In this document: piece after piece, positions 4,447-46,659 of the stretch | Layout of the letters: the number at the start of each line of letters is the position of its first letter | Position numbering within the stretch: position 1 is the first letter of the stretch | DNA from: a virus | IMG/VR virus record: IMGVR_UViG_3300045988_100566 | Length of the DNA stretch: 48,924 bases | Strand: one strand, 5' to 3' | The notes under the pieces: generated by a model | Seen by the model: the letters and a program-made list of their open reading frames with translations, nothing else | Databases searched by the model: none | Told to the model about the DNA's origin: nothing | Made by a program: the position numbers and the translations under genes

Positions 4447-4552
4447 TTTATACCTCTGAGAATCATCAGAAGCCATTCTGTATGACTTTAACTTATAAGC
4501 CTATAATTTATACACCTTCAAATTAAAGCCTTTATATGGGGCTTCTAGTTAC
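4447..4552 (-). promoter_or_regulatory. Class-II structured intergenic element, copy E
   Basis: arm1 CTAGAAGCCCC (4538-4548), spacer with GTTAAAGTCATACAG, arm2 GGCTTCTGA, loop, arm3 TCAGAGG (local hairpin 4453-4472), then GAGGT and ATG. Confidence 0.55.
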
Positions 4553-5137
4553 TTACTTGTAAAATCTCATTCCGTCTTCTTCACAAACAAGTTTTAAGTT
4601 TTTATTATGCCAACTGTCTCCTTTACAGCTTTCAAAGAACAAGATATCTTTCGATTCACTTGAACTAAGAACATTTTCCAAAGCCTGCCAGCACTCTTCA
4701 TTTGGTTCTACTTTGTTCCACCTTCCATCAGATATTGGTGTAAATTGATTTTTCTGGAAAATAACCTCTTCTACGGTATTTGGAAACATATCAGATTCTA
4801 TTCTGCTTAATACTGTACGAATCACAAGCTCCTTTGCTTTTATTCTGCATCCTTCAGCTTCTGCCATGGCTATCTTAGCAAGCATGTATTTTTCTTTTTC
4901 TGTAAACCTCTCCGCTGTTTCTGTTTCTTGTACTTCTGTACAATCAATTTCTTTAACTTCTACTACAGTATCGATTGATATACAAATATTTGGTGTATTA
5001 GATTCTGTCTGTTTTTCTAAAACAATCTGTTCTTTTAGTAAGTTTTTATTTACTGTTTTACCAAGGGTTAATAAACCTGATACAGATAATACTGTAATAC
5101 TCATTGCTACTGTAATACCGTAAAATTTCTTTTTCAT
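4553..5137 (-). CDS. Secreted/anchored SleB-CwlJ-type cell wall hydrolase (Hydrolase_2 domain)
   Basis: N-terminal signal/anchor MKKKFYGITVAMSITVLSVSGLL. The motif KYMLAKIAMAEAEG....VIRTVLSRIESDMFPNTVEEVIFQKNQF matches the SleB catalytic domain pattern. AGGAGA RBS and its own class-I promoter. Confidence 0.7.
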   Translation of the reverse strand: MKKKFYGITVAMSITVLSVSGLLTLGKTVNKNLLKEQIVLEKQTESNTPNICISIDTVVEVKEIDCTEVQETETAERFTEKEKYMLAKIAMAEAEGCRIKAKELVIRTVLSRIESDMFPNTVEEVIFQKNQFTPISDGRWNKVEPNEECWQALENVLSSSESKDILFFESCKGDSWHNKNLKLVCEEDGMRFYK

Positions 5138-5167
5138 TGTTATTCTCCTTTAGTTTACTATTCTTAG

Positions 5168-5222
5168 TACTATATAGGACTATAGTATATGGTTTACCAT
5201 ATAGTATAGAACTATAGAATAT
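5168..5222. repeat. Imperfect 55-bp palindrome in the 5' leader of the hydrolase gene
   Basis: tactatataggactatagtatatggt-tt-accatatagtatagaactatagaatat. About 21 of 26 arm positions are complementary, with repeated ACTATAG units. Confidence 0.7.
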
Positions 5223-5251
5223 ATTATATAACGTTTTTCCATATTTGTAAA
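5223..5251 (-). promoter_or_regulatory. Class-I promoter P2
   Basis: AAAAAAACTATTTACA-17 nt-TATAAT. -35 at 5246..5251, -10 at 5223..5228. Confidence 0.75.
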
Positions 5252-5259
5252 TAGTTTTT

Positions 5260-5433
5260 TTAAACTTTTACTTTTGCTTTGTCTGGATAGCTACATTCGC
5301 TGCAGATACCATAATAACAAGCTTTTCCTGACAAAACGCATATGTTTGAATATGGCTTTTCGTGATTTGATATTTCTATTTTTTCTTTTTCTTCGTAGCA
5401 CATTGATTCATACATGTCTTTTATGATTCCCAT
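5260..5433 (-). CDS. Small Cys-rich hypothetical protein (57 aa)
   Basis: MGIIKDMYESMCYEEKEKIEISNHEKPYSNICVLSGKACYYGICSECSYPDKAKVKV. GAGGT lies 12 nt upstream. Below the ORF-track cutoff. Confidence 0.45.
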   Translation of the reverse strand: MGIIKDMYESMCYEEKEKIEISNHEKPYSNICVLSGKACYYGICSECSYPDKAKVKV

Positions 5434-5579
5434 TTTTGATTTTTACCTCATACTTATAAAATTTATTTGCCTTTCTAGTAAAGCCAGAATACCCTAGTAT
5501 TGACTTTAATATATTGCATATAAAAATATATGGCTTAATAAACAAAATGCAATAGAAAGGTATCTGGCTTATTCTAAAT
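5434..5579 (-). promoter_or_regulatory. Class-II structured intergenic element, copy C
   Basis: arm1 AAGCCAGATACC (5559-5570), 64-nt AT-rich spacer with ATATTAAAGTCAATACTAG, arm2 GGTATTCTGGCTT (5481-5493), local palindrome TTCTGG-cttta-CTAGAA (5473-5489). Confidence 0.55.
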
Positions 5580-5978
5580 TTATAGCATACCTTTTTTACT
5601 TAACCAATCTTCTAGGTCTGCCATATATAACAACATTTCTTGGAGTCTTTTCTTTTCTATTGATACTTCACCCGATTCTTCATCATACGTTGTGAATCTT
5701 TTTGCCGGAATAGGAACTGTTGAACCTTTGCCTATTTTATTGGCAAATGATTTTAAAAATGAAGAAATAGCTAATGCAACTATTGGAATGAATATCTCAC
5801 CACCAAAAGTATATATACCTCTTGAATCAAAACTCCACATGCCTAGGTAGAACATAATATACGATACGATTAAGTCTAAGGCTTGACTGAAGTACCTTAA
5901 GTTTGATTTGATAAAATATATAGCTTCATACTTAAAATCCATCAGAATTGACTTAGATACATATAAAAATCTTTTCAT
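5580..5978 (-). CDS. Hypothetical membrane protein
   Basis: 132 aa with two or three hydrophobic segments (LDLIVSYIMFYLGMW, IFIPIVALAISSFL). Compact gene spacing. Confidence 0.6.
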   Translation of the reverse strand: MKRFLYVSKSILMDFKYEAIYFIKSNLRYFSQALDLIVSYIMFYLGMWSFDSRGIYTFGGEIFIPIVALAISSFLKSFANKIGKGSTVPIPAKRFTTYDEESGEVSIEKKRLQEMLLYMADLEDWLSKKGML

Positions 5979-5981
5979 AAG

Positions 5982-6353
5982 TTAGCATCCTTTCATCTGT
6001 TCTTTATAGTATTCAGATTTTACTTTTATCATCTGGTCAGCTCTTTTTGCAAAAGCCATACAATTACACCAAGCACAATTACAATTCTCATTGATAAAAA
6101 ATTTGTTATGTGTCTCCTGGCATATTGTGCAATGCCTTTCTGAAACTTCTGAAGTACTTAGTTCAACAAACAAATGAACTACAATAGTTGGCATTTCTTT
6201 GTCATCCCTTTTTTCATACTCCACTTTTACTTTATGCATGTATTTCTTGCTTATTACATTTGAAGCTACCCATTTTGCAGCTTTCATATAAGCATCTTTC
6301 ATTGTTTCAGATACAAACTTTTTCCTAAAGAACTCTTCACAATAAACAACCAT
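5982..6353 (-). CDS. Hypothetical Cys-rich protein
   Basis: 123 aa with cluster HCTICQETHNKFFINENCNCAWCNC. GGAGGG-like RBS region. Confidence 0.55.
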   Translation of the reverse strand: MVVYCEEFFRKKFVSETMKDAYMKAAKWVASNVISKKYMHKVKVEYEKRDDKEMPTIVVHLFVELSTSEVSERHCTICQETHNKFFINENCNCAWCNCMAFAKRADQMIKVKSEYYKEQMKGC

Positions 6354-6368
6354 TTGTTTACCCTCCGC

Positions 6369-6851: not shown

Positions 6852-7211
6852 TTATTTCGCACCCCTTCTTTCATTCCTTTTTGAATACATAAACAAAGCA
6901 GCTTTTGCTAATACTTCATACATTGTTATTCCGCAAATTCTTACACCATAGTCAGTCAAGTCTTCTTCATTTACAATATACGCCGCCCATATGATACTCT
7001 TATCACTAGCCCACAAATCAGGCATAATACTTCTTACCCTCATCTTGTATTTCAAAGATAACTTCCATACAAGCTTTTCTACCTTTTCTAAAGGAATCTC
7101 TGCATCTTCTGAATAATTTGACAAAGGCTTTATTTTTCTTAAAGCTCTTTGAATACTTTCTTTGTTTTCTTTTACTCTACAATCTAAATTTATGATTTCT
7201 TTTATTGTCAT
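6852..7211 (-). CDS. Hypothetical protein
   Basis: Start moved to ATG 7211 (AAAGGTG 6 nt upstream). The track's TTG at 7229 lies inside the terminator stem. Confidence 0.55.
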   Translation of the reverse strand: MTIKEIINLDCRVKENKESIQRALRKIKPLSNYSEDAEIPLEKVEKLVWKLSLKYKMRVRSIMPDLWASDKSIIWAAYIVNEEDLTDYGVRICGITMYEVLAKAALFMYSKRNERRGAK

Positions 7212-8317: not shown

Positions 8318-8362
8318 TACTTTGTCCTCCTCTAAGGTAAATCGTTTATTGATTATGTAGTT

Positions 8363-8391
8363 ATTATATCACACTTTTTTGAATTTGTAAA
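8363..8391 (-). promoter_or_regulatory. Class-I promoter P3
   Basis: AAAAACCTATTTACA-17 nt-TATAAT. -35 at 8386..8391, -10 at 8363..8368. Phased T tracts upstream at about 8396, 8405 and 8415. Confidence 0.75.
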
Positions 8392-8424
8392 TAGGTTTTT
8401 AAACTTTTTTAAAGTTTTTTTTAC

Positions 8425-9777: not shown

Positions 9778-10107
9778 TCATTTCTTCATTTTCAATATAA
9801 ACATTGCCATGTTTAACAGATATTCTCTATCACTTTTTGTCAACCTGTGGAATAAATCGAAGCCTGTAGAACCATCAAAATCATACATGCAATAATAATA
9901 TTGTGTTTCTTTTAAAATCCCACCAGCTTCATTCTGCATATTCACAAGTTGCTTTGATATCTTATCATATTCTGCATCTGAGATAACGCTTTCGTTCAAC
10001 TCATAGTACATGATGGAGTATACAATCACTCTTCTTTGTAAGTAACTAATCTTAGTTGAATCACTCCAGTAAGCACTAGGCATTTTCTCGAAGTTTATTT
10101 CTTTCAT
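9778..10107 (-). CDS. Hypothetical protein with a LigA domain-Ia-like motif
   Basis: YSIMYYELNESVISDAEYDKISKQLVNMQ resembles the YYxxxxPxISDxEYDxLxxxL signature of NAD-dependent ligase domain Ia. AGGAG RBS. Confidence 0.4.
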   Translation of the reverse strand: MKEINFEKMPSAYWSDSTKISYLQRRVIVYSIMYYELNESVISDAEYDKISKQLVNMQNEAGGILKETQYYYCMYDFDGSTGFDLFHRLTKSDREYLLNMAMFILKMKK

Positions 10108-11481: not shown

Positions 11482-11524
11482 TTTTATACCCTCCTAGGTG
11501 ATTTGTTTGTTTGATTATGATATT

Positions 11525-11553
11525 ATTATATACCAAAAAGCAAGATTTGTAAA
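11525..11553 (-). promoter_or_regulatory. Class-I promoter P4
   Basis: AAAAATATATTTACA-17 nt-TATAAT. -35 at 11548..11553, -10 at 11525..11530. Phased T tracts at 11558, 11569 and 11581. Confidence 0.75.
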
Positions 11554-11573
11554 TATATTTTTGAAAAGTTTTT

Positions 11574-11603
11574 GAAAAAGTTTTAGGGAGGATTTCTCCT
11601 CCC
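11574..11603 (-). terminator. Rho-independent terminator
   Basis: GGGAGGA-gaaa-UCCUCCC (11586-11603) followed by UAAAACUUUUUC, immediately after the stop at 11609. Confidence 0.7.
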
Positions 11604-12418: not shown

Positions 12419-12470
12419 TTTAAAACCTCCTCTAAGGAATATTTGTATTTGTTTGTGTTTTGATAATACT

Positions 12471-12499
12471 ATTATAACATATGTATTATGATTTGTAAA
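12471..12499 (-). promoter_or_regulatory. Class-I promoter P5
   Basis: AAAAAAACTATTTACA-17 nt-TATAAT. -35 at 12494..12499, -10 at 12471..12476. Confidence 0.75.
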
Positions 12500-12565
12500 T
12501 AGTTTTTTTAGTTTTGTTTTATATATATTTTTTCTTTTTCTTTTGCTACTTTTCTTTTTCTTTTT

Positions 12566-12783: not shown

Positions 12784-13389
12784 TTACCTCTCTTCTTGAA
12801 GCAATTTTCTGTCACCTAAAAAGCCATACATAGCTATACCAGCACTGTCTGAAGCATCATTATTATACATATACTTTTGCCCATTTACCATAAAAGTACC
12901 TTTCGTTTTCCTTGTCTGGATTGGTATCAAGATACTTTTCTCAAAACCTTGTCTAATACACCATTCCACTGTTGGCCACTTCTCATCTGGAACACCAAAA
13001 TTATTGCTTTTGGGCTTACTTGTACCTATTATCTGGGCTTTCCATGCCCTAGTATCTACACTATATACTGGCACATTATATTTCTTACAAACATCGACAA
13101 TGGTAGCATTTAAAGCACCTATGGATTTTATATAGTCAATATTTAAAAATCCACCAGAACGTAGTCTGATTCTTTCTATTATGCATTCTACTTCGTCTGA
13201 ATGCGTTTTCATGCTACTTAAACATGATTCTAATTTTAGCATTATTTTTTGTCTTCTATCACTATTGCAATGACATTTTTCTAGATGTATGCTTGATACT
13301 TTTTTAAGCTTACCATCTGCAGCAATGCTAATTCCAGTATTCTTATAAGACTGGTCTAAGCCTATTACTATTTTGTTGTATTTACTCAT
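12784..13389 (-). CDS. ruvC: RuvC-like Holliday junction resolvase
   Basis: IVIGLDQSYKNTGISI (first Asp), IIERIRL (Glu), NDASDSAGIAMYG (C-terminal acidic pair). RNase H-like fold pattern. Confidence 0.6.
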   Translation of the reverse strand: MSKYNKIVIGLDQSYKNTGISIAADGKLKKVSSIHLEKCHCNSDRRQKIMLKLESCLSSMKTHSDEVECIIERIRLRSGGFLNIDYIKSIGALNATIVDVCKKYNVPVYSVDTRAWKAQIIGTSKPKSNNFGVPDEKWPTVEWCIRQGFEKSILIPIQTRKTKGTFMVNGQKYMYNNDASDSAGIAMYGFLGDRKLLQEER

Positions 13390-13553
13390 ACTATTTTCCT
13401 GGCTTTCTATTTTTTATCTTTTATCCATTTTACATACCTCTTCTGAAATCATCAGAAGGCCCATAATTGACTTTTATTTATTAGCCTATATTTTTTATCA
13501 AGGTTAGTATATCAAATCAAATACAGGGCCTTCTGGTGATTCACAACCATATA
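13390..13553 (-). promoter_or_regulatory. Class-II structured intergenic element, copy D
   Basis: arm1 AATCACCAGAAGGCCC (13526-13541), 63-nt AT-rich spacer with AATAAAAGTCAATTAT, arm2 GGGCCTTCTGATGATT (13447-13462), local hairpin CTTCTGA-tgatt-TCAGAAG (13440-13458), then GAGGT and a 4-codon uORF (13414-13428). Confidence 0.6.
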
Positions 13554-16581: not shown

Positions 16582-16627
16582 ATCGTTTTCCTCCTCTAAG
16601 AAATTTGTTTTGGTTGATTATGATATT

Positions 16628-16656
16628 ATTATACCACAAATATCTCATTTTGTAAA
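16628..16656 (-). promoter_or_regulatory. Class-I promoter P6
   Basis: AAAAACCTATTTACA-17 nt-TATAAT. -35 at 16651..16656, -10 at 16628..16633. Confidence 0.75.
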
Positions 16657-16678
16657 TAGGTTTTTGCATTTTTTTATT

Positions 16679-20132: not shown

Positions 20133-21248
20133 TTATTTTAAAATATTTTCCAATTCTTTCTCTACACAATCTGCAATCGTATCAGCTTTCAGCTTTTCCA
20201 TATCTTTCTTCATTGTTTCAAAGCCGATTTTTGAACCAGACAAAATCATGCTTCTGAGTTTGACATACATTTCTTCCACATTATGGCAATAGCCATAATA
20301 GTCATCTGAGAATATCTCCGCATATCCAAACTTTTTAGGAAGTAAGCATTTTACTCCATAACATGCACAATCTGTAGTTGAAGAACACCACATACCTTCT
20401 GAATCAAAAAATGTATTCAAATGAATACCTACTTCTTTTGACTTTAAGAAGTTAACATAAGTTTCAGTATCAGACAATTCTACTTTTTTAAAGTATGGCT
20501 TGTCTTTTTCTACATCAAAATCTTTCCCGGAAGGATTTGTAAAATATACTGTTGGCATATTTTCTAAGCCTAAGTCGTCCTCTAACATATCCATTACTCT
20601 TACTAAGTTGTTATACGCACTTTTGTAATATACATCTGAAGAAAGCCTGTGGTTGTAGATTATGTTCATTCCAACATCAGCCTTTAAGTCCATAATCTCT
20701 TCATTCGCTGTTGGATAGAACACTCTTACATTATTTGTATTATAACCTAACTTCTTCATTTTGTAAATCACAAAATTTGAATTTACAAAACATAAATCGG
20801 CATTTTCTATACCTTCTCTCTGTCTGTATTCCAAAAACTTCATGTTGTCCGCTGCAAGCCAATGTATGTAAGTAACTACTTTTGATTCTTTGAATATATT
20901 CTTCAATGGAAGAACTTTGCTTGGTTCATTTACGAAAATAATGTCATACTTTTCGTTGTTGTTTTTGATTTCCATAAATCGACTTGAATCAAAATCAAAC
21001 CTTTCATTGAATGCACCTGCAAATTCTCTTTTTGTATTTCTAAATACAACTCCATCAAAATTTTTCCAGAAATCATTGTCAAGATCTTCGTACTTCATAT
21101 TAAACTCGAAGCAAACGTCTACTTCGTTTCTCTTAAACATTTGTGTACTGAGGAGTTTTCTTAAGAAAGTAATATTACTATCCTTGTTAAGTAATACTTT
21201 CCCATCTGACGACATACAACTTATCTGAGGAATCCACAAAATTCTCAT
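20133..21248 (-). CDS. GT-B-fold (GT1/GT4-like) glycosyltransferase candidate
   Basis: 371 aa. MRILWIPQ N-terminal Rossmann start, DIIFVNEP, ADLCFVNSNF, NIIYNHRL, and C-terminal DSEGMWCSSTTDCACYGVKCLLPKKFGYAEIF resembling EgfG..lEAmaxGxPvi. TAATG overlap with the radical SAM gene. Confidence 0.5.
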   Translation of the reverse strand: MRILWIPQISCMSSDGKVLLNKDSNITFLRKLLSTQMFKRNEVDVCFEFNMKYEDLDNDFWKNFDGVVFRNTKREFAGAFNERFDFDSSRFMEIKNNNEKYDIIFVNEPSKVLPLKNIFKESKVVTYIHWLAADNMKFLEYRQREGIENADLCFVNSNFVIYKMKKLGYNTNNVRVFYPTANEEIMDLKADVGMNIIYNHRLSSDVYYKSAYNNLVRVMDMLEDDLGLENMPTVYFTNPSGKDFDVEKDKPYFKKVELSDTETYVNFLKSKEVGIHLNTFFDSEGMWCSSTTDCACYGVKCLLPKKFGYAEIFSDDYYGYCHNVEEMYVKLRSMILSGSKIGFETMKKDMEKLKADTIADCVEKELENILK

Positions 21249-22186
21249 TACAAATACCTCCTTTCAGACTTTTTAACATTTTCAAAATCTGAATTAAATT
21301 TCACATATCTATCGCAGTTCTTACAAAAACTATAAAGCTTGTTTTCGTCATCAATTCCATCAAGGTTTTCAACCCTGAATTTTCCTTCCCAATCACAACC
21401 GTTATCATTTGTCGCTCTGCAACATGGGTACTCTGTACCATTCTGATCTATGACTCTATGTACTGCTTTAACATAACATTTTCCAGCAAAAGGTTTTCTT
21501 TTTTCAAACTCAAAACTTTCAACGTTTGTATCCGCTACCTTTTCACCCCTTGCTTTCAAAGTGTTTGATACTTCTGTAATATCAATCATCTGACTCTTTA
21601 CCGAATCAAACATTTCTTTTTTAAGAAATACATCTTCATTGGTGTGCACGGGAAAGAATCTTATTCCTACTACATTATCAAATTTGCAAAACTTCATAAA
21701 CACGTTGAATACATCTGTATAATTCTTAACTGATACCGTCATATTCAGTTTTACTTTAGTTTTAAGACTTCTTATGTTTTCTATCAGTCTTTTATATCTG
21801 CTCACATAGTTCTTTTCTAAACCAGAATACCTTATGCTAGCGTACATTTCTGGTGTACTTCCATCCATACTTGCTTGAACAAATTCTGCTCTTTCTAAGA
21901 ACTCTCTTATATGATTTTGTGATAAATCATAGTCAAGATTCGTAAACACCTGATACTTTAAATCTTTCTTTTCTTTAAGCAGCTCATTGAGTTTTGACAG
22001 TTTAGAATAACTCAATGGATCGCCACCTGAAAAAGTAAAAGTACAGTTTGGATTCTCTTCATAGAATTTGTTTATCTTTTCCTTCAGTAAATCAAAATCT
22101 ATCTCTCTGTGATTCCATGTATACTGTCTGCACATGTAGCATCTCTGGCTGCATCTTGTCGTTAAATCAAACTGAACACTAATCAT
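21248..22186 (-). CDS. Radical SAM enzyme with a Cys-rich (SPASM/twitch-like) C-terminal region
   Basis: CSQRCYMC = CX3CX2C. FSGGDPL (SAM glycine motif). C-terminal cysteines KCY...PCC...GCD...FCKNC. Confidence 0.8.
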   Translation of the reverse strand: MISVQFDLTTRCSQRCYMCRQYTWNHREIDFDLLKEKINKFYEENPNCTFTFSGGDPLSYSKLSKLNELLKEKKDLKYQVFTNLDYDLSQNHIREFLERAEFVQASMDGSTPEMYASIRYSGLEKNYVSRYKRLIENIRSLKTKVKLNMTVSVKNYTDVFNVFMKFCKFDNVVGIRFFPVHTNEDVFLKKEMFDSVKSQMIDITEVSNTLKARGEKVADTNVESFEFEKRKPFAGKCYVKAVHRVIDQNGTEYPCCRATNDNGCDWEGKFRVENLDGIDDENKLYSFCKNCDRYVKFNSDFENVKKSERRYL

Positions 22187-24889: not shown

Positions 24890-25436
24890 CGTCCTTTTCC
24901 TGCCCTTTCTTTGCGGTCACTGTATAATAAGGATTCTGTTTTTCTGTTGTATAACACCCATCTAAACTTTCTTCACTTACTTTTCCAGTTGCCACAAGAT
25001 TTTCCAAAACCGGAACATCAACAGATTTTTTTACATCAATGAAGTTTTTGAACACCTTTGGATTCACTCCATATTCTTTGAGATATGTTATCAATCCCGG
25101 CATATCGTTCACTTCATATTTCTTTATTATAACCTGTTTCCTGTACTCTTTTTCTAATGCTTTTTCAACAGATTCAGCATCAAAATTAACAGAAACTTTC
25201 TGAACCTTTTTAATTCTAAGAACCTGCTTATTAGCAATTTCATTGTAAGAAAAACTAATCTCCGAATCAATATTATTCTCATCAAAGAACTTATTTATTG
25301 AACCATAAAAGTTTTTCTTTAACTCATTCATTTGGCCTTGCATTTCTTTAAGCTCTCTGTTTTTTCTAAAGAACTCTAATGCCATAAACCTGCATTTCTC
25401 ATACAGAGAAGAACTAGTTTTTCTTTCCCTCTTCAC
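24885..25436 (-). CDS. Hypothetical protein (replication module)
   Basis: 183 aa with a GTG start 9 nt after AAGGA. Its stop overlaps the open primase frame. Confidence 0.55.
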   Translation of the reverse strand: MKRERKTSSSLYEKCRFMALEFFRKNRELKEMQGQMNELKKNFYGSINKFFDENNIDSEISFSYNEIANKQVLRIKKVQKVSVNFDAESVEKALEKEYRKQVIIKKYEVNDMPGLITYLKEYGVNPKVFKNFIDVKKSVDVPVLENLVATGKVSEESLDGCYTTEKQNPYYTVTAKKGQEKDD

Positions 25437-25902
25437 TTTTCTTAATTCCTTTCAGAAGATTATAAATTCCTCTTGGCCAGCGTCTTCCGGTTTTCACCCA
25501 GATAACATCTTCAAACGGAACAATGAACTCAGCACCATATTCAGTTTCGAGTTTAAGCAACTTTTTCTTAGTGCTTCTCTTCATGAGCTTTGCTGCCTTA
25601 ACCTTGCCAGTTGGAAGCCTAAAAGCAACAATTACTCCCATTTCTACTTTTTCAATGTAGTCAATCTTACTACTATACTTATTTTCTGCTTCTGCAGAAT
25701 CACACTCACATACATCTGTTTTCTGAGGAGTTGCTTCTTTGCTCTCCTGAACCCGCTCTATTTCCTCAACAACTTTTGTCGCTTCAGCTATCGCTTCAAT
25801 CAACTGATCTTTTGTCATATCCCATCTTCCAGAGATATTATACTTTTTAGCAACCTCTCTCAGCTCCTTGCAAGTCATTTTAGCTAAAATTTCTTTTGAC
25901 AC
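25414..25902 (-). CDS. Hypothetical protein with N-terminal HeH (Rho_N/SAP-like) motif
   Basis: MTCKELREVAKKYNISGRWDMTKDQLIEAI. GTG start 8 nt after AGGAGGG. Confidence 0.55.
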   Translation of the reverse strand: MSKEILAKMTCKELREVAKKYNISGRWDMTKDQLIEAIAEATKVVEEIERVQESKEATPQKTDVCECDSAEAENKYSSKIDYIEKVEMGVIVAFRLPTGKVKAAKLMKRSTKKKLLKLETEYGAEFIVPFEDVIWVKTGRRWPRGIYNLLKGIKKSEEGKKN

Positions 25903-26297: not shown

Positions 26298-26346
26298 TTT
26301 GTTTTTCCTCCTCTGAGTAATTTTTGTTTTATTTGATTATGTATAT

Positions 26347-26375
26347 ATTATATACCAAGATTTTGATTTTGTAAA
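26347..26375 (-). promoter_or_regulatory. Class-I promoter P7 (start of the early region)
   Basis: AAAAACCTATTTACA-17 nt-TATAAT. -35 at 26370..26375, -10 at 26347..26352. Phased T tracts at 26380, 26390 and 26397. Confidence 0.8.
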
Positions 26376-26410
26376 TAGGTTTTTGAAAGTTTTTTATTTT
26401 TTTTCAGCTA

Positions 26411-29400
26411 CTATTTTATAGTAATAGCACCAGTTTTAGAATCAATCTGAATTGTCTTACCAGCTATGGGTTTACCATCTTCTATAACTTGAATCACGGG
26501 AGCATTATCCATAGTTGCTGGAAGTCCATTGGTTTCATCGAACACAATAGAAGCTGCAAACAGCGGAACTCCATCTGTTCCACTCTGTAAATAGAATCCG
26601 TCTGCTACGTTTGATTTAGCCAGAACTCTGTAAGTTTCATTGGCTTTTGCAGAGAAGCTAAATGATTTTGAGTAAACCTTTTTGGGCTTCATTCTGTTGG
26701 CTTCAATCGTAGTAGCAAATTTACTGTTTGGAACTTCAGTAAGCTGATTTGGGCTAGGGCCTACTTTTGCAAGCCATATTTCAACATTGTTAATAGTTCC
26801 TGTCTCATTGAAAATCTGAGCCTGATATTCCATATTAACATTACCATCTACAAGGAATTTAAAGTCGCCTTGCACTTTCAGTGGGTCGCTGGAGCCTGCA
26901 TCAGACCAACTATTATCATTTACTATTTTTCCATCACCACCTGCAATAACTCCTGCTGGAATTTTCGTAGATGAATCGTTGACCGTATATCGATAACTTG
27001 CATCACCCTTTGGAGTATCTACTCTGGCTTTGTAATACTTCTTGCTAAATTCCAGATATTGCTCCTTGATGTGGCTGTTCGTAGTTATAACTAGTTTGTT
27101 AAACCCCGGAACAATATCACCCTCAAAGTCATTCAATTTAAGCGTGGTTGGAATCTGAGAAGATACTGGATAAAGAACTATGGCTAATTCTTTACCATCA
27201 GATGGCAGGTTAAATTTTTTTATAGCAGTATGAATCCCAGATACAGCATCTTCTGAAATGAATAACGAGTCTACCGCCTCCCAATCAGCAGAGAACACAG
27301 GTGAACCGTTATCATAACTCTGAACAGACGGTAATGGTGCAGGGTTTTGTATTCCTGTATATTTCATCAGATTTATCTGAAAGGCATTATTTTTGTCTGT
27401 GATTTTAACCGTGGTATTATACTCTTTTCCACCTATATAGTGGGTTGCAAACTTACTATATCGTTTCACGATTGAAAACACAGGTAAATCAGTTCCGTTG
27501 TCTTTAATAATCAACTGATAGTTCTGAATAGCTGCTTTTACCTTTGTCTTAAAATCAAGGTAAGTGTCATCCCCTAGATACATTGTAGTAGGTGCTACTT
27601 CTTGCTCAGCCATGTCAAAAGTAAGATACTGGGCAAAATTCAGGGAATTTGTACCGTAATAAATGTTGTCAAATCCAATTCTGTACCCTGTAAAAGCCAT
27701 AAAAGCAAGTAAAGCCATACCTGCTGATTCTTTTTTACTTATGGCTTGTAGCATAATGCAGGTATCAGCACCAATGCTTAAAATTTCCTCATTTGCAAAC
27801 GTAGTTTTAAGCTTTAAGTGAACTTCTGTATAGTCTTTTACTCTGCACTCTCCAACATACAGCTCTTTTCTCTGCACGTCATCAGTTTTGTACTCGACTT
27901 CAACCCCCATTGGATTGCCATTTATATCCAGAATAGGCGATTCATTATTGTCCACAAGCTCCAGCATAATTTTACCGTCCTGAGTTAATGGTGCTAATTC
28001 ATAGGCTGACGGAACATAAGATAAAGCCACAAGGAACGTTGTGCCTTCGCTCATGTTTGAATCATCCTGCATATTAATATCCTGAATCACAAACGATTTA
28101 TTCTGCAAATTCTGGTAAACAAAAGCTCCACCCTGAACTCTGACATCACCAAAGTAAATCTTTGCTTTGTCATATTTTGTATTGTATAACTGATCATTTC
28201 CAACAAAAGCAAGAATACCGTCATGCCCTTTTACACCCTCTACAGAAAAATCTGCGTTTTCGCCTAGCTTAGCAATTCTAACAGTTCTATCCATAGATTG
28301 AATATTTTGTGAAGTAAACCATTCTTTTTTCATACCGTCCATAAACTGCATTGAATAATCATGCGTTTCGTGGTGTGATATAAAATCATAACCTGGTTCA
28401 TTTTTAAATGGCAGGAAATAACCTAAATACCCTTGTTTTGTGAACGTCATCGAGCTGGCTGAAACAATACCATCTATGCTTTCCCCTGAAGCTGCATCTA
28501 TCTCTAGGGAGCCTGATGATACCCCTGTTGAGAATATCAACTCCACCATAATGATTTTACCATCACTATGAAGTGGAAGAATCTGGGTTATCTTTTGCTT
28601 CTCGCTTGTAAGCTGAAATGCTAAATATAATGTTGTAGCATCTTTGTATGGCGGCTGTGATAAGTCAATAGCTGCTTGAACTTCATATCTGTTTGCATAG
28701 AACAGTTTTTTGATTTCTTCATCTGTTTTACCGCTTATGGCTGGGTGGTCTGCATTCTGTAAAGCCCTAAAAGCTGCATTTGCTTTAAGCTCTCTGTCAA
28801 AATCAGACGGAGAAAAGTTTGAACCGTCTTTTGACATTAAGCCTGAATCAATTCCTTTATCATACAGCTTTTGAAGGTCTACGTCGGCAAGGTCGTTTTC
28901 TGCCAGTCCGTTCTTTTTCGCCTGAGTCAGAAAATCCGCATCAGACATAGGTTCTTTAACAGCTTCCTTATATTTCTGTCTGAATACATCATTTGATACA
29001 TTCTTAAAGTCTTTAAGTGCAAAATCACCAGCATCACTCTGAGCTACAGGTGGAGCTGCAAAGTTTTCGTTTCTGTCAACATAGTAAACGCAGCTGTACG
29101 TGTAATAATCGTCAATCTTAATCATTAACTTAACTCTTCCATAACCCATCGACAAATATTTACTAGCTGCTACTTTTACTACATTGCCAGCCACTGTTAC
29201 TGGATAGTCTGGAGAAGACTCATCTACAGTAAACGATTCTACACCATTTTCAAAATTAAAAATGAGCTTCGGCTTTTTCATATTGTCAATGGTAATGGGT
29301 TCACCACGCTCAGCAAGCCTAAACTCAAAAGCAAAGTTCTGGTTACCTTGTAAAAGACCCGTTTCTTTTATTGCTTTATCTGCATAAGCTGTATCAAGTT

Positions 29401-29419
29401 CAACCTTAAACGTCCTCAT
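26411..29419 (-). CDS. Large tail fibre / receptor-binding protein (BppU-like N-terminal domain)
   Basis: 1002 aa, last gene of the tail module. The N-terminus LLQGNQNFAFEFRLAERGEPITI resembles the BppU_N pattern. AAAAGGAGGTG RBS. Confidence 0.55.
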   Translation of the reverse strand: MRTFKVELDTAYADKAIKETGLLQGNQNFAFEFRLAERGEPITIDNMKKPKLIFNFENGVESFTVDESSPDYPVTVAGNVVKVAASKYLSMGYGRVKLMIKIDDYYTYSCVYYVDRNENFAAPPVAQSDAGDFALKDFKNVSNDVFRQKYKEAVKEPMSDADFLTQAKKNGLAENDLADVDLQKLYDKGIDSGLMSKDGSNFSPSDFDRELKANAAFRALQNADHPAISGKTDEEIKKLFYANRYEVQAAIDLSQPPYKDATTLYLAFQLTSEKQKITQILPLHSDGKIIMVELIFSTGVSSGSLEIDAASGESIDGIVSASSMTFTKQGYLGYFLPFKNEPGYDFISHHETHDYSMQFMDGMKKEWFTSQNIQSMDRTVRIAKLGENADFSVEGVKGHDGILAFVGNDQLYNTKYDKAKIYFGDVRVQGGAFVYQNLQNKSFVIQDINMQDDSNMSEGTTFLVALSYVPSAYELAPLTQDGKIMLELVDNNESPILDINGNPMGVEVEYKTDDVQRKELYVGECRVKDYTEVHLKLKTTFANEEILSIGADTCIMLQAISKKESAGMALLAFMAFTGYRIGFDNIYYGTNSLNFAQYLTFDMAEQEVAPTTMYLGDDTYLDFKTKVKAAIQNYQLIIKDNGTDLPVFSIVKRYSKFATHYIGGKEYNTTVKITDKNNAFQINLMKYTGIQNPAPLPSVQSYDNGSPVFSADWEAVDSLFISEDAVSGIHTAIKKFNLPSDGKELAIVLYPVSSQIPTTLKLNDFEGDIVPGFNKLVITTNSHIKEQYLEFSKKYYKARVDTPKGDASYRYTVNDSSTKIPAGVIAGGDGKIVNDNSWSDAGSSDPLKVQGDFKFLVDGNVNMEYQAQIFNETGTINNVEIWLAKVGPSPNQLTEVPNSKFATTIEANRMKPKKVYSKSFSFSAKANETYRVLAKSNVADGFYLQSGTDGVPLFAASIVFDETNGLPATMDNAPVIQVIEDGKPIAGKTIQIDSKTGAITIK

Positions 29420-29434
29420 ACAAACACCTCCTTT

Positions 29435-29465
29435 TAAAAAAGGCCCTCTGGATAACCAGAAGGCC
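29435..29465 (-). terminator. Rho-independent terminator inside the tail-fibre operon
   Basis: GGCCUUCUGG-uuau-CCAGAGGGCC (29442-29465, one G-U pair on the minus strand) followed by UUUUUU. Confidence 0.8.
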
Positions 29466-29476: not shown

Positions 29477-29737
29477 TTATTTTCCTGGGCCTACAGGTGT
29501 ATTGCCCTTACCCTCTAAACCTGGACCTACGGGCGTGTTACCAAGTCCTTCAAGACCCGGCCCTACTGGAGTATTGCCCTTACCTTCCAGTGCTGGGCCT
29601 GTTGGTACATTTCCGCCTGTTGTGACTGGGCCTGTCTCTCCTACGTCACATGTACATTGTGTGTTAGGCTTACTATTATGTACCTCATTTACCGACTTGT
29701 TTTTGTGTACCTTACATCCTGTTTTACTCTTTCCCAT
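29477..29737 (-). CDS. Small Gly/Pro-rich repeat protein
   Basis: 86 aa. C-terminal half is four 14-aa repeats, GN(T/V)P(V/T)GP(G/A)LEG(K/L). N-terminal Cys residues. Confidence 0.55.
   Translation of the reverse strand: MGKSKTGCKVHKNKSVNEVHNSKPNTQCTCDVGETGPVTTGGNVPTGPALEGKGNTPVGPGLEGLGNTPVGPGLEGKGNTPVGPGK
29480..29617 (-). repeat. Coding tandem repeat, 42-nt unit, about 3.3 copies
   Basis: Units such as cctgggcctacaggtgtattgcccttaccctctaaa recur with synonymous drift. Confidence 0.8.
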
Positions 29738-42201: not shown

Positions 42202-42255
42202 TTTGTTTTCCTCCTCTGAGTGATTTGTTTTTGTTTGTTTATTGATTATGTATAT

Positions 42256-42284
42256 ATTATAATATAAAAACCTGCATTTGTAAA
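42256..42284 (-). promoter_or_regulatory. Class-I promoter P8 (inside the late region)
   Basis: AAAAACCTATTTACA-17 nt-TATAAT. -35 at 42279..42284, -10 at 42256..42261. Confidence 0.75.
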
Positions 42285-42309
42285 TAGGTTTTTGCAAAAT
42301 TTTTAAAAT

Positions 42310-42870: not shown

Positions 42871-42913
42871 AAGTTACCTCCTTGAATTTATTTAGTTTTA
42901 CTTTATATGTATT

Positions 42914-42942
42914 ATTATAACATATAACTCTATATTTGTAAA
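42914..42942 (-). promoter_or_regulatory. Class-I promoter P9 (inside the late region)
   Basis: AAAAAAACTATTTACA-17 nt-TATAAT. -35 at 42937..42942, -10 at 42914..42919. Confidence 0.75.
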
Positions 42943-42958
42943 TAGTTTTTTTATTTTT

Positions 42959-43906
42959 TTATTTATTTTTATACCCTAACTTCTTAGCAAATTTGTCAAT
43001 ATTTGGATATGTACCATTAGGACTATTGTACCAATTAGCAATATCATCAACCATTGTTTTACTCACTGCTGGCTCTATTGTACACATTCCATTCGGATGG
43101 TCTAATGGCAGTTCATCTTTCTTAAACCTTTTCCCATCTCTTGCTTTGCATATATCACAAACTCTGCTACCATTACTTCTCCATATATACTCTGTTATAA
43201 ACGGATTGTCTTTCGTAGTTTCTGTAAAACTTTGCTGATAACCATGCTGAACCAAAGTTCTTGCTAATCTTTGTGAACTATAATCAACCTGTCTAGGATA
43301 TATTTTTCTTCCATCTTTGTCTGTAAGATTCCATGGTTTCTTTGCGCTTGGCCTAACTACTTTTTCAATATCTTTAGCTATTTCATATATACTTTGATTC
43401 TTTGCTACACCACCAGCTACAATTTCATATAAGTGACTTAATGTAACTTCATTGTCACCCCATATAGCTTTACTAAGACTCCATCCTGAATCATATATTT
43501 GACCTGTAACAAGCTTTCTTACTATGGTATCTGGTACATTATCGAACAGAGCATTAAAACCTTTATCACCAAAGTAAAAACCAAGGCTTTTTAACCATTC
43601 CTTATCTGATTCTATCACAGAACTTGCTACTTTGTAAATATTTTCTTTTATTTTGTTATATACTTCATTCGATACTTTTTGACTTGTGGCTTTCAGCATC
43701 TTTTCAAGTTCTTTCATTTGTTTTTCTGATACTACAGAACTTGGCGTTGTTTTGTGCTTAAACATTTCTGCTTTAGCTTTTATCTCATCCGCCCATTTTT
43801 CATATAACTTTGCTATTTCTTTCTTTTGAGATGCAGTAATGGCATCCCTTGCTTTTTCAGCATCTTTCATTTTAAGCTTGTTTTGATACTTTATCTTATT
43901 TGCCAT
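42959..43906 (-). CDS. Head morphogenesis protein (SPP1 gp7 / Mu F-like)
   Basis: C-terminal WRSNGSRVCDICKARDGKRF...LPLDHPNGMCTIEP is the Mu F motif. Confidence 0.75.
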   Translation of the reverse strand: MANKIKYQNKLKMKDAEKARDAITASQKKEIAKLYEKWADEIKAKAEMFKHKTTPSSVVSEKQMKELEKMLKATSQKVSNEVYNKIKENIYKVASSVIESDKEWLKSLGFYFGDKGFNALFDNVPDTIVRKLVTGQIYDSGWSLSKAIWGDNEVTLSHLYEIVAGGVAKNQSIYEIAKDIEKVVRPSAKKPWNLTDKDGRKIYPRQVDYSSQRLARTLVQHGYQQSFTETTKDNPFITEYIWRSNGSRVCDICKARDGKRFKKDELPLDHPNGMCTIEPAVSKTMVDDIANWYNSPNGTYPNIDKFAKKLGYKNK

Positions 43907-44021
43907 TATTACATCTACCTTTCAGAGTTCACTAGATGCTTCTAGGATTGATTTTAATATTTTGCTATATATTTATAGGGGCTTAATATATTAAATCAAT
44001 CCTAGGGCATTCTGATGATTT
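43907..44021 (-). promoter_or_regulatory. Class-II structured intergenic element, copy B
   Basis: About 30-nt imperfect inverted arms (43930-43960 and 43987-44016) around a 26-nt loop. Contains ATATTAAAATCAATCCTAG and its inverted copy. Confidence 0.55.
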
Positions 44022-44456
44022 CTACGATACTATCTTCCAACCATCTGGATACGTTTCATAATCCCATACACAATTATCTTTTATACATTCATATTTCTTT
44101 CCTTTGAATGTAACTTTATCACCTGTATTATAAGCATCATGAGCACCCAAGGGTTGCTTATATTCTGGATATTCTTCGGGTTCAAGAGCGGGGTCTGTTG
44201 GCTTACCTGTTTCTAATTTACCTACTTTACCTATACTTTCTTCTAGCTTACTTATCTTTTTAAAAGCTTCTTCAATTTGCTTCTCTAAGGGAGCATATGA
44301 ATTTTCAGGTTTTGCTTTTTCCTGAGCAGACCTTATAAGACTGTCTTTTTCATTTTCAGTTATTTCTGATTGAAGCCATAAAATATTAATCTTATGAATA
44401 ATGTCTGCTAACTCAAAGTTACCTGAATTGATTATACCAGCAATAATATCGAACAT
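44022..44456 (-). CDS. Hypothetical protein with C-terminal CBM5/12-like carbohydrate-binding motif
   Basis: AYNTGDKVTFKGKKYECIKDNCVWDYETYPDGW resembles AYxxGDxVxYxGxxYxC....W.P....W. Confidence 0.5.
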   Translation of the reverse strand: MFDIIAGIINSGNFELADIIHKINILWLQSEITENEKDSLIRSAQEKAKPENSYAPLEKQIEEAFKKISKLEESIGKVGKLETGKPTDPALEPEEYPEYKQPLGAHDAYNTGDKVTFKGKKYECIKDNCVWDYETYPDGWKIVS

Positions 44457-44470
44457 TTTTTTATCACCTC

Positions 44471-46537
44471 TTAACTTTTAATCAACTGTTTTGCCAGTGC
44501 CACAAACTTTGAATCAATATACTTCTTTGTATCAGTTATGTATTTTACTTTTGTTGTTATGCCTGCATTATTTATAATCGTTGTAGTGGGTTCATTCGTA
44601 TGCAGTGCCTTGAATGCTGCAATTTCTTCTGGCGTGAGCAGAGTTTCTACCGGTTGTTTTAATGGGTATATGATGTCGAACGGATTTTCTTTAAGATAGT
44701 TATTTACAGCTTCAACTGTCTGTTCCTGAACTAATTTTTTTGGAAAACCAAACACTATATATCCATTATTGAGAATATATGTCATTTCAGAACCATTTAA
44801 ACTGGTACTTTCACCTCTAAAAATATTTTTATTGCACAAAATTCCAATTTGTCTATTTTTTAGCTTATCTACCAGGTTTTCATATTCGCATCCGAAATAA
44901 TCTGGATTTAACTGCCTTTTATTATTTATCGAAACAACATAAGATATTTTGTGTTTTTCAACTCTCTGTACCCTTACGCATTTACCATCTTTCCTGTACT
45001 CAATAGTATCTGCTATCCATTTCTGGCCTGTGCTGTCTATGTAGGTATAGTCATTACCAGATACTGGGATTCCAGATAGACCATTTGGAGTTGTGAGGAT
45101 AATGGTCTGAGGCTGTTTATAAGACTCAAAAGGAAGAGCAGATGAACCTACATTGAGCATAGGATAAATCGTATCGTTATATGTTTGTCCTACTACTTGA
45201 TTGGGATTTCTAACACCAGTTACTTTAATATTGGAATCAATAGTAAAAGTGTTTCGTAACAAGCTTTTGTTAGAAAACAATATACAATCTTTTATAGTAT
45301 ATGTTCCTTGCTTGAGTGTGAATAAAACTTTTTCTTGTAAATTGGGATCGACAGAATAGCCACCCAAAAACCAAACATTGCCATTATCCCCCGTTGCTGT
45401 TCCGGTCGCTATATAGCTTCCATCTGGATTCTTAGTATAAGTGACCCCTTCTCCTGTTCCAGATTTTCCTTTACTTAAATCAAGTAAATTCCCACCTAAC
45501 ACATCTATCTTAATCTGTCCGCTCTGCCCTGCCGATACAATTTCTACTGGCGTTTCTGGTGAAGGTGTTCCTGACTGGGTGGATTTACCATACATGAAAA
45601 ACTCATCAAAAGCATAATCTACGGAGTCTTGAATCAAATGCGTTTCTTCTTTACTTTCTGACTTTATTGCTAACTTATCAACAATACTGTCAACACTTTG
45701 TGCTGCATAATCTGCTGATTGTTTTGCACTTTCTTCTGACTTCTTTGCTTCCATTTCTGAAACTTTTGCATTTGTTTCAGATAACTTGGTGGCTTCTACT
45801 GATTTTTCTGCATTTGTTTCACTTTGCTTCGCATTTACTTCTGATTGTTTTGAAGCATTTTCACTTCTTTTTGCATTTGCTTCAGAAGATGCTGCATTCG
45901 TAGCACTTCGACTCGCAGCTTGCGCTGAATTGCTTGTTGACACCGAATCCTGCTTTACTTGTTCCGCTAACTTTGTAAACTCTTCTGAATGGTCATATCT
46001 TAAACTCTCTAACCATTCCTGTTCTTTACCTACAAAGCCATTTTCAACAGCTAACTCATAAGCTGATTTACCATCTTTCCCATCAGCTCCATCTTTCCCA
46101 TCAAACTTACCTGCATCAGCATCATCTCTTACTGACTGGGCTATCTTATTTGCTTCATCAATCTGCTTAATAAGTTTTGCATACAAGTCTTCAGGTGGCT
46201 GTATAGGTGGCTGTCCTTGTGGATTATAACCGCTTTTCACAAGTTTCAATGTTGCAGGTATTGTTGTGTTTCTTTTGCTTCCATCCTTTACACCAAACAA
46301 ACTTACATTCCAGATTCCTTCTTCCATATCAGGTGGAATCATACCAGCGTTGTTTTTGTCCAACAAAATATTTACCGTCTTATCTGCTTTTGTGATTTGA
46401 GATGTAAGCGTATATCCTTCCCAGTCAGACGATAAAGCAAATCCAAAAGGGATAGCATTGATACTGTCTGTAGGAATCGTATAATCGCTATCTGACGTAT
46501 AATGTTTTACTTTGTTTTTGTCTACCAGAAATATCAT
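44471..46537 (-). CDS. Fibre-like structural protein (collagen-like GKDG stretch, heptad coiled coil, beta-rich C-terminus) located in the head module
   Basis: Start moved to MIFLVDK (AAAGGAGG 8 nt upstream). GKDGADGKDGKSAYELAVENGFVGKEQEWLESL is a common phage fibre motif. Nine SExNAKx heptads. Confidence 0.65.
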   Translation of the reverse strand: MIFLVDKNKVKHYTSDSDYTIPTDSINAIPFGFALSSDWEGYTLTSQITKADKTVNILLDKNNAGMIPPDMEEGIWNVSLFGVKDGSKRNTTIPATLKLVKSGYNPQGQPPIQPPEDLYAKLIKQIDEANKIAQSVRDDADAGKFDGKDGADGKDGKSAYELAVENGFVGKEQEWLESLRYDHSEEFTKLAEQVKQDSVSTSNSAQAASRSATNAASSEANAKRSENASKQSEVNAKQSETNAEKSVEATKLSETNAKVSEMEAKKSEESAKQSADYAAQSVDSIVDKLAIKSESKEETHLIQDSVDYAFDEFFMYGKSTQSGTPSPETPVEIVSAGQSGQIKIDVLGGNLLDLSKGKSGTGEGVTYTKNPDGSYIATGTATGDNGNVWFLGGYSVDPNLQEKVLFTLKQGTYTIKDCILFSNKSLLRNTFTIDSNIKVTGVRNPNQVVGQTYNDTIYPMLNVGSSALPFESYKQPQTIILTTPNGLSGIPVSGNDYTYIDSTGQKWIADTIEYRKDGKCVRVQRVEKHKISYVVSINNKRQLNPDYFGCEYENLVDKLKNRQIGILCNKNIFRGESTSLNGSEMTYILNNGYIVFGFPKKLVQEQTVEAVNNYLKENPFDIIYPLKQPVETLLTPEEIAAFKALHTNEPTTTIINNAGITTKVKYITDTKKYIDSKFVALAKQLIKS
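45695..45928 (-). repeat. Coding 21-nt (heptad) tandem repeats
   Basis: SEANAKR SENASKQ SEVNAKQ SETNAEK SVEATKL SETNAKV SEMEAKK SEESAKQ. Explains the spurious plus-strand ORFs here. Confidence 0.8.
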
Positions 46538-46659
46538 TTCATTAACCTCCTTTCTGGAATCACCAGAAGCCATTAGGATTGATTGCAATGTTTTGCCTTA
46601 TATTTTTATAGGCGTTATAAACAAAATCAATACTGAGACTTCTGGTAACTTCTGGCATA
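46538..46659 (-). promoter_or_regulatory. Class-II structured intergenic element, copy A
   Basis: Two CCAGAAG arm1 copies (46639-46655), about 70-nt spacer with ACATTGCAATCAATCCTAATGG, arm2 plus the local palindrome CTTCTGG-tgatt-CCAGAA (46552-46569), then AGGAGG. Confidence 0.6.

Follow-up and report, generated by a model that had tools for sequence, protein, structure and literature searches.

The window described here is the whole 48,924-nucleotide (nt) stretch of the viral record IMGVR_UViG_3300045988_100566, the genome of a virulent-type, single-strand-coded phage of gut Clostridia, in which five intergenic regions carry copies (A to E) of one structured element. All five lie on the minus strand, which is the gene-sense strand, and the regions, the strand and the positions proposed for them in an initial annotation of the sequence were all confirmed. 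The coordinates used below are the boundaries of a covariance model. Each copy folds as a single rod-like hairpin of approximately 90–105 nt, and no sixth copy was found in the window.

Element A (46549–46650, minus strand, as are all the copies) lies between the stop codon of the portal gene (46660) and the Shine-Dalgarno (SD) sequence and start codon (ATG 46537) of g03. It holds an extra CCAGAAG box (46649–46655), the CCAGAAG core of the first arm, arm1 (46639–46645), the second arm, arm2, which reads GGCTTCTGG (46563–46571), and a third box CCAGAA (46552–46557), adjoined by the SD sequence AGGAGG (46546–46551). Element B (43918–44020) occupies the gap between the stop codon of g04 (44022) and the minor head gene g05 (ATG 43906), and contains a perfect 13-bp helix formed by CTAGGATTGATTT and AAATCAATCCTAG. 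Element C (5470–5572) is found directly past the stop codon of g60 (5580), with the SD and ATG of the 57-aa g62 (5433) about 40 nt further on. Element D (13438–13541) separates the Cas4-like exonuclease gene g43 (stop 13554) from the RuvC-like gene g44 (ATG 13389). Its arms make up a 41-nt inverted repeat, in which arm1 is AATCACCAGAAGGCCC (13526–13541) and arm2 is GGGCCTTCTGATGATT (13447–13462), and its third box is TCAGAAG (13440–13446). Element E (4452–4553) lies directly past the stop codon (4553–4555) of the cell-wall hydrolase gene g63 and runs into the SD and the likely ATG (4446) of g64.

Near the base of the hairpin, an outer helix pairs a left-hand CCAGAA(G) with its right-hand mirror, (C)TTCTGG. 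Further in, an inner helix pairs TTGATTT with AAATCAA, and an apical GCC...GGC helix closes the A/T-rich centre. Conservation is highest in the CCAGAA and TTCTGG boxes, the inner helix, and the AT-rich apex. The distance from the TTGATT block to the AATCAA block is constant, at 40–42 nt. When compared with dinucleotide shuffles, the RNA folds reach z-scores of −3.3 (A), −3.8 (B), −5.7 (C), −4.4 (D), and −2.9 (E). The paralogues of the window are 62–74% identical to one another, against 56 ± 3% in shuffled pairs, with A and B sharing 73% identity over 86 nt.

This architecture differs in several respects from the one outlined at first. The helix between arm1 and arm2 is present, but longer than described, and the TGATT taken for an unpaired loop is in fact paired with AATCA on the left side, as the two arms of D illustrate. 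Similarly, the AT-rich spacer does form an A/T-rich apex, but is itself paired through the inner helix and the apical GCC/GGC helix. An SD and a start codon directly follow A, B, and E, whereas in C and D the true start is situated 40–60 nt further on.

In the case of D, a four-codon mini open reading frame (mini-ORF; 13414–13428) precedes the true start at 13389. It reads ATG GAT AAA AGA TAA, has an SD-like AGAGG of its own, and lies 25 nt ahead of the RuvC-like gene; the orthologues of D in the related loci L106 and L107 keep an ATG at this position, the remainder of their mini-ORF being unread. The right arms of A and E, on the other side, each hold an ATG (AATGGCTTCTG...; 46535–46573 and 4444–4476, minus strand) in frame with the downstream start, which follows 12 codons later in A and 10 codons later in E, and no SD is found ahead of it. 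This is probably a coincidence, and a consequence of it is that g03 and g64 reach into the element in mechanically made ORF lists.

Occurrence in relatives and selection on pairing

The relatives used for comparison were collected from IMG/VR by means of the portal protein (80 loci, 54–100% identity) and of the DNA polymerase (79 more loci). A covariance model built from the window clade alone, and then run on distant relatives with portal proteins 54–69% identical, finds copies with E-values from 1e-6 to 1e-2, and the element is thus present in related phages. The matches of this model are located past the homologue of g60 (L015, L010, L013, L020, L009, L031, and L186/L187), past the portal gene (L009, L012, and L189), past the minor head gene (L056 and L058), and 3 nt past the DNA polymerase gene (L112–L119). 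These copies fold likewise, with stems of up to approximately 33 bp, and the succession of stop codon, element, SD, and ATG recurs among the relatives. The element is absent from many relatives and from the cultured relative CS266P1.

A narrow core-pattern scan of IMG/VR returned true matches confined to this phage family, plus 17 chance matches. The initial annotation knew of no named element that fits, and this holds: Rfam gave no match overlapping the copies, even at E <= 5, and two tRNAs alone pass the gathering scores in the window. The element belongs to no named family.

Iterated nhmmer searches yielded 66 instances near the portal gene and 25 near the polymerase gene, with a profile that drifted along the way. 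The matches inside an ADP-ribosylglycohydrolase gene and inside homologues of g52 were removed, as they are intragenic and show no insertion relative to their homologues. In the ADP-ribosylglycohydrolase gene, a coding stretch carries element-like inverted repeats (CCAGATTGATTC...AAATCAATTCTGG) in L013:12208–12339, L021:14270–14402, L022:9880–10012, L009:14493–14639, L046:13902–14038, L017:6671–6789, and L019:5650–5768; these either resemble the element by chance, a likeness that iterating the profile has amplified, or echo it in frame. The homologue of g52 holds an intragenic palindrome with arms CCAGGAGG/CCTCCTGG in L056:147–265 (approximately −47 kcal/mol) and in L047:1544–1610. A naive scan for CCAG...CTGG hairpins was abandoned, since it returned mostly false positives in coding regions and tRNAs and missed B, D, and E.

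Orthologous copies are 81–99% identical, while copies found at the same junction in different clades share 63–71% identity and are no closer to each other than paralogues are. None of the genomes compared contains near-identical paralogues. The flank of the core is specific to each clade, the window clade having CCAGAAG(G)CC and the clade of L015 and L009 having CCAGAATGAC, and it holds across junctions. Judging from these sequences, the copies appear to be old and vertically inherited.

The hairpin is real and its pairing is maintained by selection, since both pairing and covariation exceed their controls and compensatory double changes are found between orthologues. The comparison is based on 47 intergenic copies in a structure-blind MAFFT alignment, with a consensus helix taken from single-sequence folds. 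Standard pairs fill 67.9% of the cells, against 61.2% in shuffles (a level reached by 0 of 500) and 35–53% with slid partners, a control that is somewhat favourable because the consensus structure derives from the same 47 sequences, although the alignment was made without regard to the structure. Covariation scores 0.292, compared with 0.213 in the shuffles (again 0 of 500) and at most 0.20 with slid partners, and both sides change in 33 of the 39 pairs. The pair that adjoins the outside of the CCAGA core, for instance, appears as AU (16), UA (8), UG (7), GC (3), and CG (1).

Double changes are also seen against a genome at 94% portal identity. There, the orthologue of B has twice replaced a U-A pair by C-G, turning CTAGG/CCTAG into CCAGG/CCTG(A)GG and GATTT/AAATC into GATTC/GAATC, and the orthologue of A has replaced G-C by U-A, turning TTGATT/AATCAA into TTTATT/AATAAA. 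Covariation between arm1 and arm2, for which a level no higher than that of shuffled controls had been set out beforehand as counting against the element, is confirmed both within the window and among the relatives, and over the 47 copies it exceeds those controls.

Gene junctions, promoters and terminators

At gene junctions the copies come and go as discrete units, and they are found repeatedly at module borders and on both sides of inserted cassettes. Their presence varies between orthologous junctions, with the stop codon and the SD left intact. A and B enclose a two-gene insertion (44022–46537, minus strand) between the portal gene g02 (46660–48195, minus strand), which is the conserved left neighbour of A and whose 3' junction is an insertion hotspot in the family, and the gene of the SPP1 gp7-like minor head protein, g05 (42959–43906, minus strand), the conserved right neighbour of B. 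The cargo consists of g03 (44471–46537, minus strand), encoding a fibre-like protein of 688 aa, and g04 (44022–44456, minus strand), encoding a protein of 144 aa with a weak, sub-threshold match to the carbohydrate-binding module CBM5/12 (24.6 bits, the cut-off being 26.2). Both genes are confined to the close relatives that form the window clade. In most other relatives the portal gene is directly followed by g05, in the arrangement portal-TAA-(1–6 nt)-AAAGGAGG-g05, and the empty junction of L013 reads ...GAAGAATAA-G-AAAGGAGG-N9-ATG. L009 and L012 hold a single element exactly between the portal stop codon and the SD of g05, with no cargo, and L189 likewise has a single element without cargo.

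C and E delimit another cassette (4553–5433, minus strand), composed of g62 (5260–5433, minus strand; 57 aa), a strong promoter (TTTACA-17-TATAAT; 5223–5251, minus strand), and g63 (4553–5137, minus strand), which encodes a Hydrolase_2/SleB-like protein. Many relatives show the order element, c29, c30, c31, element at this place, c30 being the homologue of g63. According to the gene-order maps, the recurrent positions of the element are past the g60 homologue, before TerS, past the portal gene, and past the minor head gene, ahead of a strong promoter. In the comparison of L007 with L028, which are 81–89% identical on both sides, homology breaks exactly at the first CCAGA box and resumes approximately 50 nt past the element. 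The ends of megablast homology blocks fall within elements 53 times, against 49.5 expected, which is no enrichment in a count dominated by ordinary within-gene divergence. No consistent direct repeat that would represent a target-site duplication was found at the borders of A–E or between filled and empty sites.

As for transcription, a promoter had been suggested to lie in the spacer. A scan finds no sense-strand sigma-70-type site inside any copy, and the antisense strand of C and D holds weak 9/12 matches. The real promoters are elsewhere and constitute a separate repeat family, with nine near-consensus intergenic copies of the form A-rich-CTATTTACAAA-N17-TATAAT on the minus strand (3317–3368, 5222–5273, 8362–8413, 11524–11575, 12470–12521, 16627–16678, 26346–26397, 42255–42285, and 42913–42964). 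The motif includes its A-rich upstream tract (AAAAACTATTTACAAA-N17-TATAAT), its hexamers TTTACA-N17-TATAAT agree with the consensus at 11/12 positions, and several copies have a leader and SD block in common downstream. A weaker match (20738–20768, minus strand) is located inside g35. By their sequence, these repeats look like the host-sigma promoters of the phage, and as such would define its transcription units.

Hairpin-plus-U-tract terminators are found at approximately 29441, 16135, 7231, and 3123, and none of them follows an element. The first of these (about 29400–29445, minus strand), between g26 and g27, has the form GGCCTTCTGG-TTAT-CCAGAGGGCC followed by T6, and uses the CCTTCTGG/CCAGA motif, as do arm2 and arm3 of the elements. 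No U-tract comes after any of the five copies, and the intrinsic attenuator or terminator that was among the roles first suggested is unlikely. In addition, A and B precede the essential head gene g05 and come after the promoter at 3368, and no strong promoter intervenes, the interval from the portal gene to g05 being devoid of promoter-like sites except for weak 9/12 matches inside g03. Strong termination would therefore cut off g05, so that A and B would not be efficient terminators unless read-through is regulated.

The third box (arm3) had been described as able to pair with arm2 in place of arm1. Such a pairing, of 6–8 bp, is indeed possible in four of the copies (A, C, D, and E), whereas in B it amounts to no more than 3 bp. 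As a feature of the family, however, mutually exclusive helices have no covariation support, and what most relatives have as a third box, about 10 nt past the core, is a direct repeat, (T/C)CTGG, that pairs outward with an extra upstream CCAGA box. A partial complementarity between arm2 and arm3 comes nearly free, because all boxes fit YCWGR, a pattern which is its own reverse complement, and the stem that these two arms could form leaves the SD uncovered.

Proposed role, alternatives and known systems

The element family is real, well delimited, and evolutionarily constrained, and its role is one that we infer. Tentatively, and with somewhat less than even confidence, the element is regarded as an intercistronic RNA hairpin, transcribed together with its neighbours, that serves at module junctions as a processing or stability signal of the RNase III type, while also marking the borders of cassettes. 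According to the inferred mechanism, the copies would be transcribed because they lie inside operons, a context deduced from the maps of promoters and terminators. The RNA would fold into a quasi-continuous, interrupted duplex of 25–35 bp, a natural substrate of RNase III, and either the double-strand-specific RNase III of the host would cut this duplex or the duplex would block exonucleases. Cleavage or blocking would then uncouple the cistrons or modules on either side in their stability and translation, making of the element an "insulating" processing signal. The conserved CCAGAA/TTCTGG box could be the recognition determinant for a narrow-specificity Firmicute enzyme or for a phage factor and, as a by-product, the shared junction sequence may provide homology for the gain and loss of cassettes.

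The RNase III of Bacillus subtilis is a narrow-specificity enzyme with known targets in the mRNA of phage SP82 (PMC4838370), and Correia elements are another case in which RNase III binds or cuts its target (PMC2649163). The element does present, within a predicted polycistronic transcript, a hairpin with a quasi-continuous duplex of at least approximately 20 bp. In proposed function, the closest known systems are the RNase III sites of T7 and SP82, which also form a small family of similar hairpins with internal loops between co-transcribed phage genes; the conservation of sequence beyond pairing would fit a narrow-specificity enzyme. The T7 and SP82 sites measure about 50–60 nt and their cleavage has been shown experimentally, whereas the element described here is about 100 nt long and its cleavage is a prediction. 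To our knowledge, presence/absence variation and the bracketing of cassettes are not described features of those sites.

The excess of G-U pairs, the stability of the sense strand, and the fold of E speak weakly for a hairpin formed by RNA and not by DNA. Among 37 non-redundant copies, the sense strand folds better in 24, with a mean difference of −2.7 kcal/mol, and its folds contain 4.1 G-U pairs on average, against 2.9 in the antisense strand. With DNA parameters A–D still fold as a hairpin, but E does not (z-score of −1.6, compared with −2.9 as RNA), since the inner helix of E depends on G-U pairing.

Several observations weigh against an RNA processing signal. The shuffles already favour the sense strand by 1.3 kcal/mol, with a composition-corrected p = 0.13, some copies score better when inverted, and A-C mismatches are frequent in the helix columns (183 cells, next to 248 G-U cells). 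The data would be explained just as well by a DNA hairpin, by a cruciform, or by a palindrome in duplex form. Furthermore, the CCAGAA/TTCTGG boxes have the highest information content of the family consensus and are conserved well beyond the needs of pairing. In many relatives they are repeated two or three times per arm, spaced by about 8–12 nt with non-complementary sequence in between, a pattern that looks like an array of protein-binding sites. Finally, the cultured CS266P1 lacks the element, which is thus dispensable for this type of phage. The explanations considered in the following are not all mutually exclusive.

An action at the DNA level, as a junction or recombination element similar to the intergenic cassettes of T4-type phages or, loosely, to integron attC sites, is conceivable although on the unlikely side. 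The palindromes would let the phage machinery swap cassettes, with the UvsX-like g40, the RuvC-like g44, and the Cas4-like g43 exchanging, inserting, or deleting them, and any effect of the RNA would be secondary. This reading would account for the way A and B bracket g03–g04 exactly at the empty portal–g05 junction of the relatives, for the lone elements without cargo in L009, L012, and L189, for the elements flanking the hydrolase cassette c29-c30-c31 in many relatives and recurring at a few module borders, and for the break of homology between L007 and L028. The clade-specific flanks that hold across junctions would fit intragenomic homogenisation, and A–D fold with DNA parameters too. Against it, homologous recombination would be poorly served by paralogues 62–74% identical, with short identical runs, the annotated genes (PHROGs, Pfam) include no integrase or site-specific recombinase that could be found, homology-block ends are not enriched in elements, and the copies appear old and vertical, with no recent duplicates seen.

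In layout and behaviour, the known system closest to the element is that of the promoter-early stem-loops (PeSLs) of T4-type phages, intergenic cassettes that mediate insertions and deletions (Arbiol et al. 2010, PMC2839356; Comeau et al. 2014, PMC4122927). Both consist of a stop codon, an AT-rich region with a stem-loop, an SD, and a start codon. PeSLs concentrate beside variable genes and flank insertions or replacements between related phages; the element does so in individual cases (A and B around g03–g04, the filled and empty portal–g05 junctions, L007 against L028), while the count of homology-block ends shows no such trend. However, a PeSL has a consensus sigma-70 promoter, and none was found inside A–E, where the promoters belong to a repeat family apart. 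The stem-loop of a PeSL is short, G/C, and terminating, in contrast to a palindrome of about 100 nt without a U-tract, and PeSLs number around 50 per genome rather than five. Integron attC sites are imperfect palindromes of approximately 60–140 bp that have RYYYAAC and GTTRRRY core sites and a cognate IntI integrase. The likeness to them is one of architecture only, and includes the conserved inverse end boxes, the variable paired centre, the presence of one copy per cassette, and the single orientation. The boxes here are CCAGAA/TTCTGG instead, with no GTTRRRY core, and no tyrosine recombinase, attI site, or array of promoterless cassettes was found in the window.

The repeated boxes could also make the element an array of duplex-DNA binding sites for a phage or host protein, used as a roadblock or operator, or a palindromic replication origin or unwinding element, which is judged improbable. 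Each arm would offer two or three YCWGR-type boxes (CCAGA/TCTGG) at about the spacing of a helical turn around an AT-rich centre of fixed length, presumably comparable to mycobacteriophage stoperators, to oriL/oriS of herpes simplex virus, and to the ori/crr repeats of P4. The information content of the boxes, their spacing of about 8–12 nt with unpaired sequence in between, the constant 40–42 nt from TTGATT to AATCAA, the near-symmetry of G-U and A-C mismatches, and flanks that differ by clade as if co-evolving with a trans factor would all agree with such an array. A protein that binds the duplex would nevertheless not need the compensatory changes seen outside the boxes, and Pfam and PHROGs assignments of the small early proteins gave no element-specific binding protein or nuclease. 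Moreover, the spacing of the boxes in the right arm varies from 8 to 11 nt, and five origins or operators, none of them adjoining a strong promoter, would be odd. The GC skew of the window is monotonic and lacks an inflection, which is uninformative when all genes are on one strand. A related proposal, equally doubtful in our view, is that the hairpins are the cis sites of a dedicated trans-acting system, either an attC-like cassette recombination that recognises hairpins or a phage protein that reads the phased CCAGA boxes, whether on DNA or on the stem of the RNA, and gates the expression of each module; boxes conserved beyond pairing needs, flanks covarying with the clade, and the bracketing of cassettes would suit it.

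In shape, the elements come closest to the Correia (CREE/NEMIS) and ERIC sequences, imperfect palindromes of about 100–150 bp with conserved inverted ends and a core (PMC2649163). These are likewise transcribed and intergenic, their RNA folds into long hairpins, and their presence at orthologous sites varies; CREE RNA is bound or cleaved by RNase III (PMC2649163). The known ones, however, belong to chromosomes, occur in high copy number, are often near-identical, and have an IHF site and a TA target duplication, whereas those of the window are phage-borne, low-copy, and 62–74% identical, with no target duplication or sequence similarity detected. A small chance is given to a selfish MITE/ERIC/Correia-like element that spreads into the gaps between stop codon and SD and is tolerated there without a function. 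A length of about 100 bp, terminal inverted repeats around a short non-coding core, presence or absence at orthologous sites with stop codon and SD intact, and the lack of copies in many relatives and in CS266P1 are what such an element would leave behind. But the five copies have diverged, with no near-identical ones in any genome compared, there is no consistent target-site duplication, no transposase was found among the annotated genes, and the core-pattern matches in IMG/VR are confined to this phage family, the sole scan of GTDB having used the portal protein and not the element as its query. Compensatory evolution and conserved junction positions across relatives 54–69% identical argue instead for constraint.

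The regulatory switch that the initial annotation had in mind is the least credible of these alternatives and is considered very improbable. A promoter in the spacer would give transcripts lacking arm1, in which arm2 pairs with arm3, while read-through from upstream would pair arm1 with arm2, or else the element would work as a terminator or attenuator. The 6–8 bp available to arm2 and arm3 in four of the copies, the use of the same motif by the real terminator at about 29441, and a TTGATT situated 16–17 nt upstream of the A/T-rich central hexamer would be compatible with it. Against it stand the lack of a sense-strand sigma-70-type match in any copy, real promoters of 11/12 consensus placed elsewhere, and a third box that does not pair in B and is a direct repeat in most relatives. 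In addition, the SD stays uncovered, no copy precedes a U-tract, and strong termination at A or B would keep transcription from reaching g05.

If the elements are processing or insulating signals, they would show how a string of co-directional genes can set different expression for neighbouring modules, and how new genes such as g03–g04 can be accommodated among essential ones that go on working undisturbed. In the case of an action on DNA, they would add to the PeSLs of T4-type phages a second, independent example of dedicated junction sequences driving modular shuffling, this time from gut Firmicute phages, in which mosaicism is common. For experiments, the family offers a compact target of about 100 nt in which the boxes are conserved and junctions occur naturally both filled and empty; for the annotation of uncultured gut and rumen phages, it offers a marker of cassette borders.

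The phage and its other features

The first and last 55 nt of the window are identical (1–55 and 48870–48924), and for this reason it is read as a circularly closed assembly. The assembly, circular or terminally redundant, represents a complete phage genome of approximately 48,869 bp, with a G+C content of 35% and every plausible gene on the minus strand. PHROGs and Pfam assign packaging and head functions (TerS, TerL, portal, SPP1 gp7-like minor head protein, scaffold, and major capsid), functions of replication and nucleotide metabolism (DNA polymerase of phrog_405, primase, SSB, the UvsX-like recombinase g40, RNase H, the Cas4-like exonuclease g43, the RuvC-like resolvase g44, thymidylate synthase, and dCMP deaminase), and lysis functions (SPP1-type holin, M15 peptidase, and SleB-like hydrolase).

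The collection of deposited phages contains no close relative at the DNA level. The nearest cultured phages are the Clostridium phages CS266P1–P4, with a capsid identity of 60%. The scan of GTDB with the portal protein found only related contigs of phage size, most of them in bins of Clostridia or Oscillospiraceae that come from the guts of animals.

The genes for lytic enzymes are found at two separate and unusual places. One is a lysis cassette between TerL and the portal gene (204–772 and 48208–48828, minus strand), which comprises the holin g71, the 97-aa ORF g70, and the M15 peptidase g01; the other is the Hydrolase_2 gene g63 within the cassette delimited by C and E. Upstream of TerS, just downstream of a strong promoter, lie two adjoining tRNA genes (2941–3099, minus strand). 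Three accessory genes are unusual for a phage of about 49 kb, namely those of a radical-SAM protein (g34; 21248–22186, minus strand), of a protein with a Rho_N/SAP-like nucleic-acid-binding domain (g29; 25414–25902, minus strand), and of a stand-alone DNA-ligase-like N-terminal (Nlig-Ia) domain (g50; 9778–10107, minus strand). Lastly, g26 (86 aa) contains three tandem repeats of 36 nt (29484–29600), which, read by eye and untranslated, suggest collagen-like G-X-Y triplets on the gene strand.

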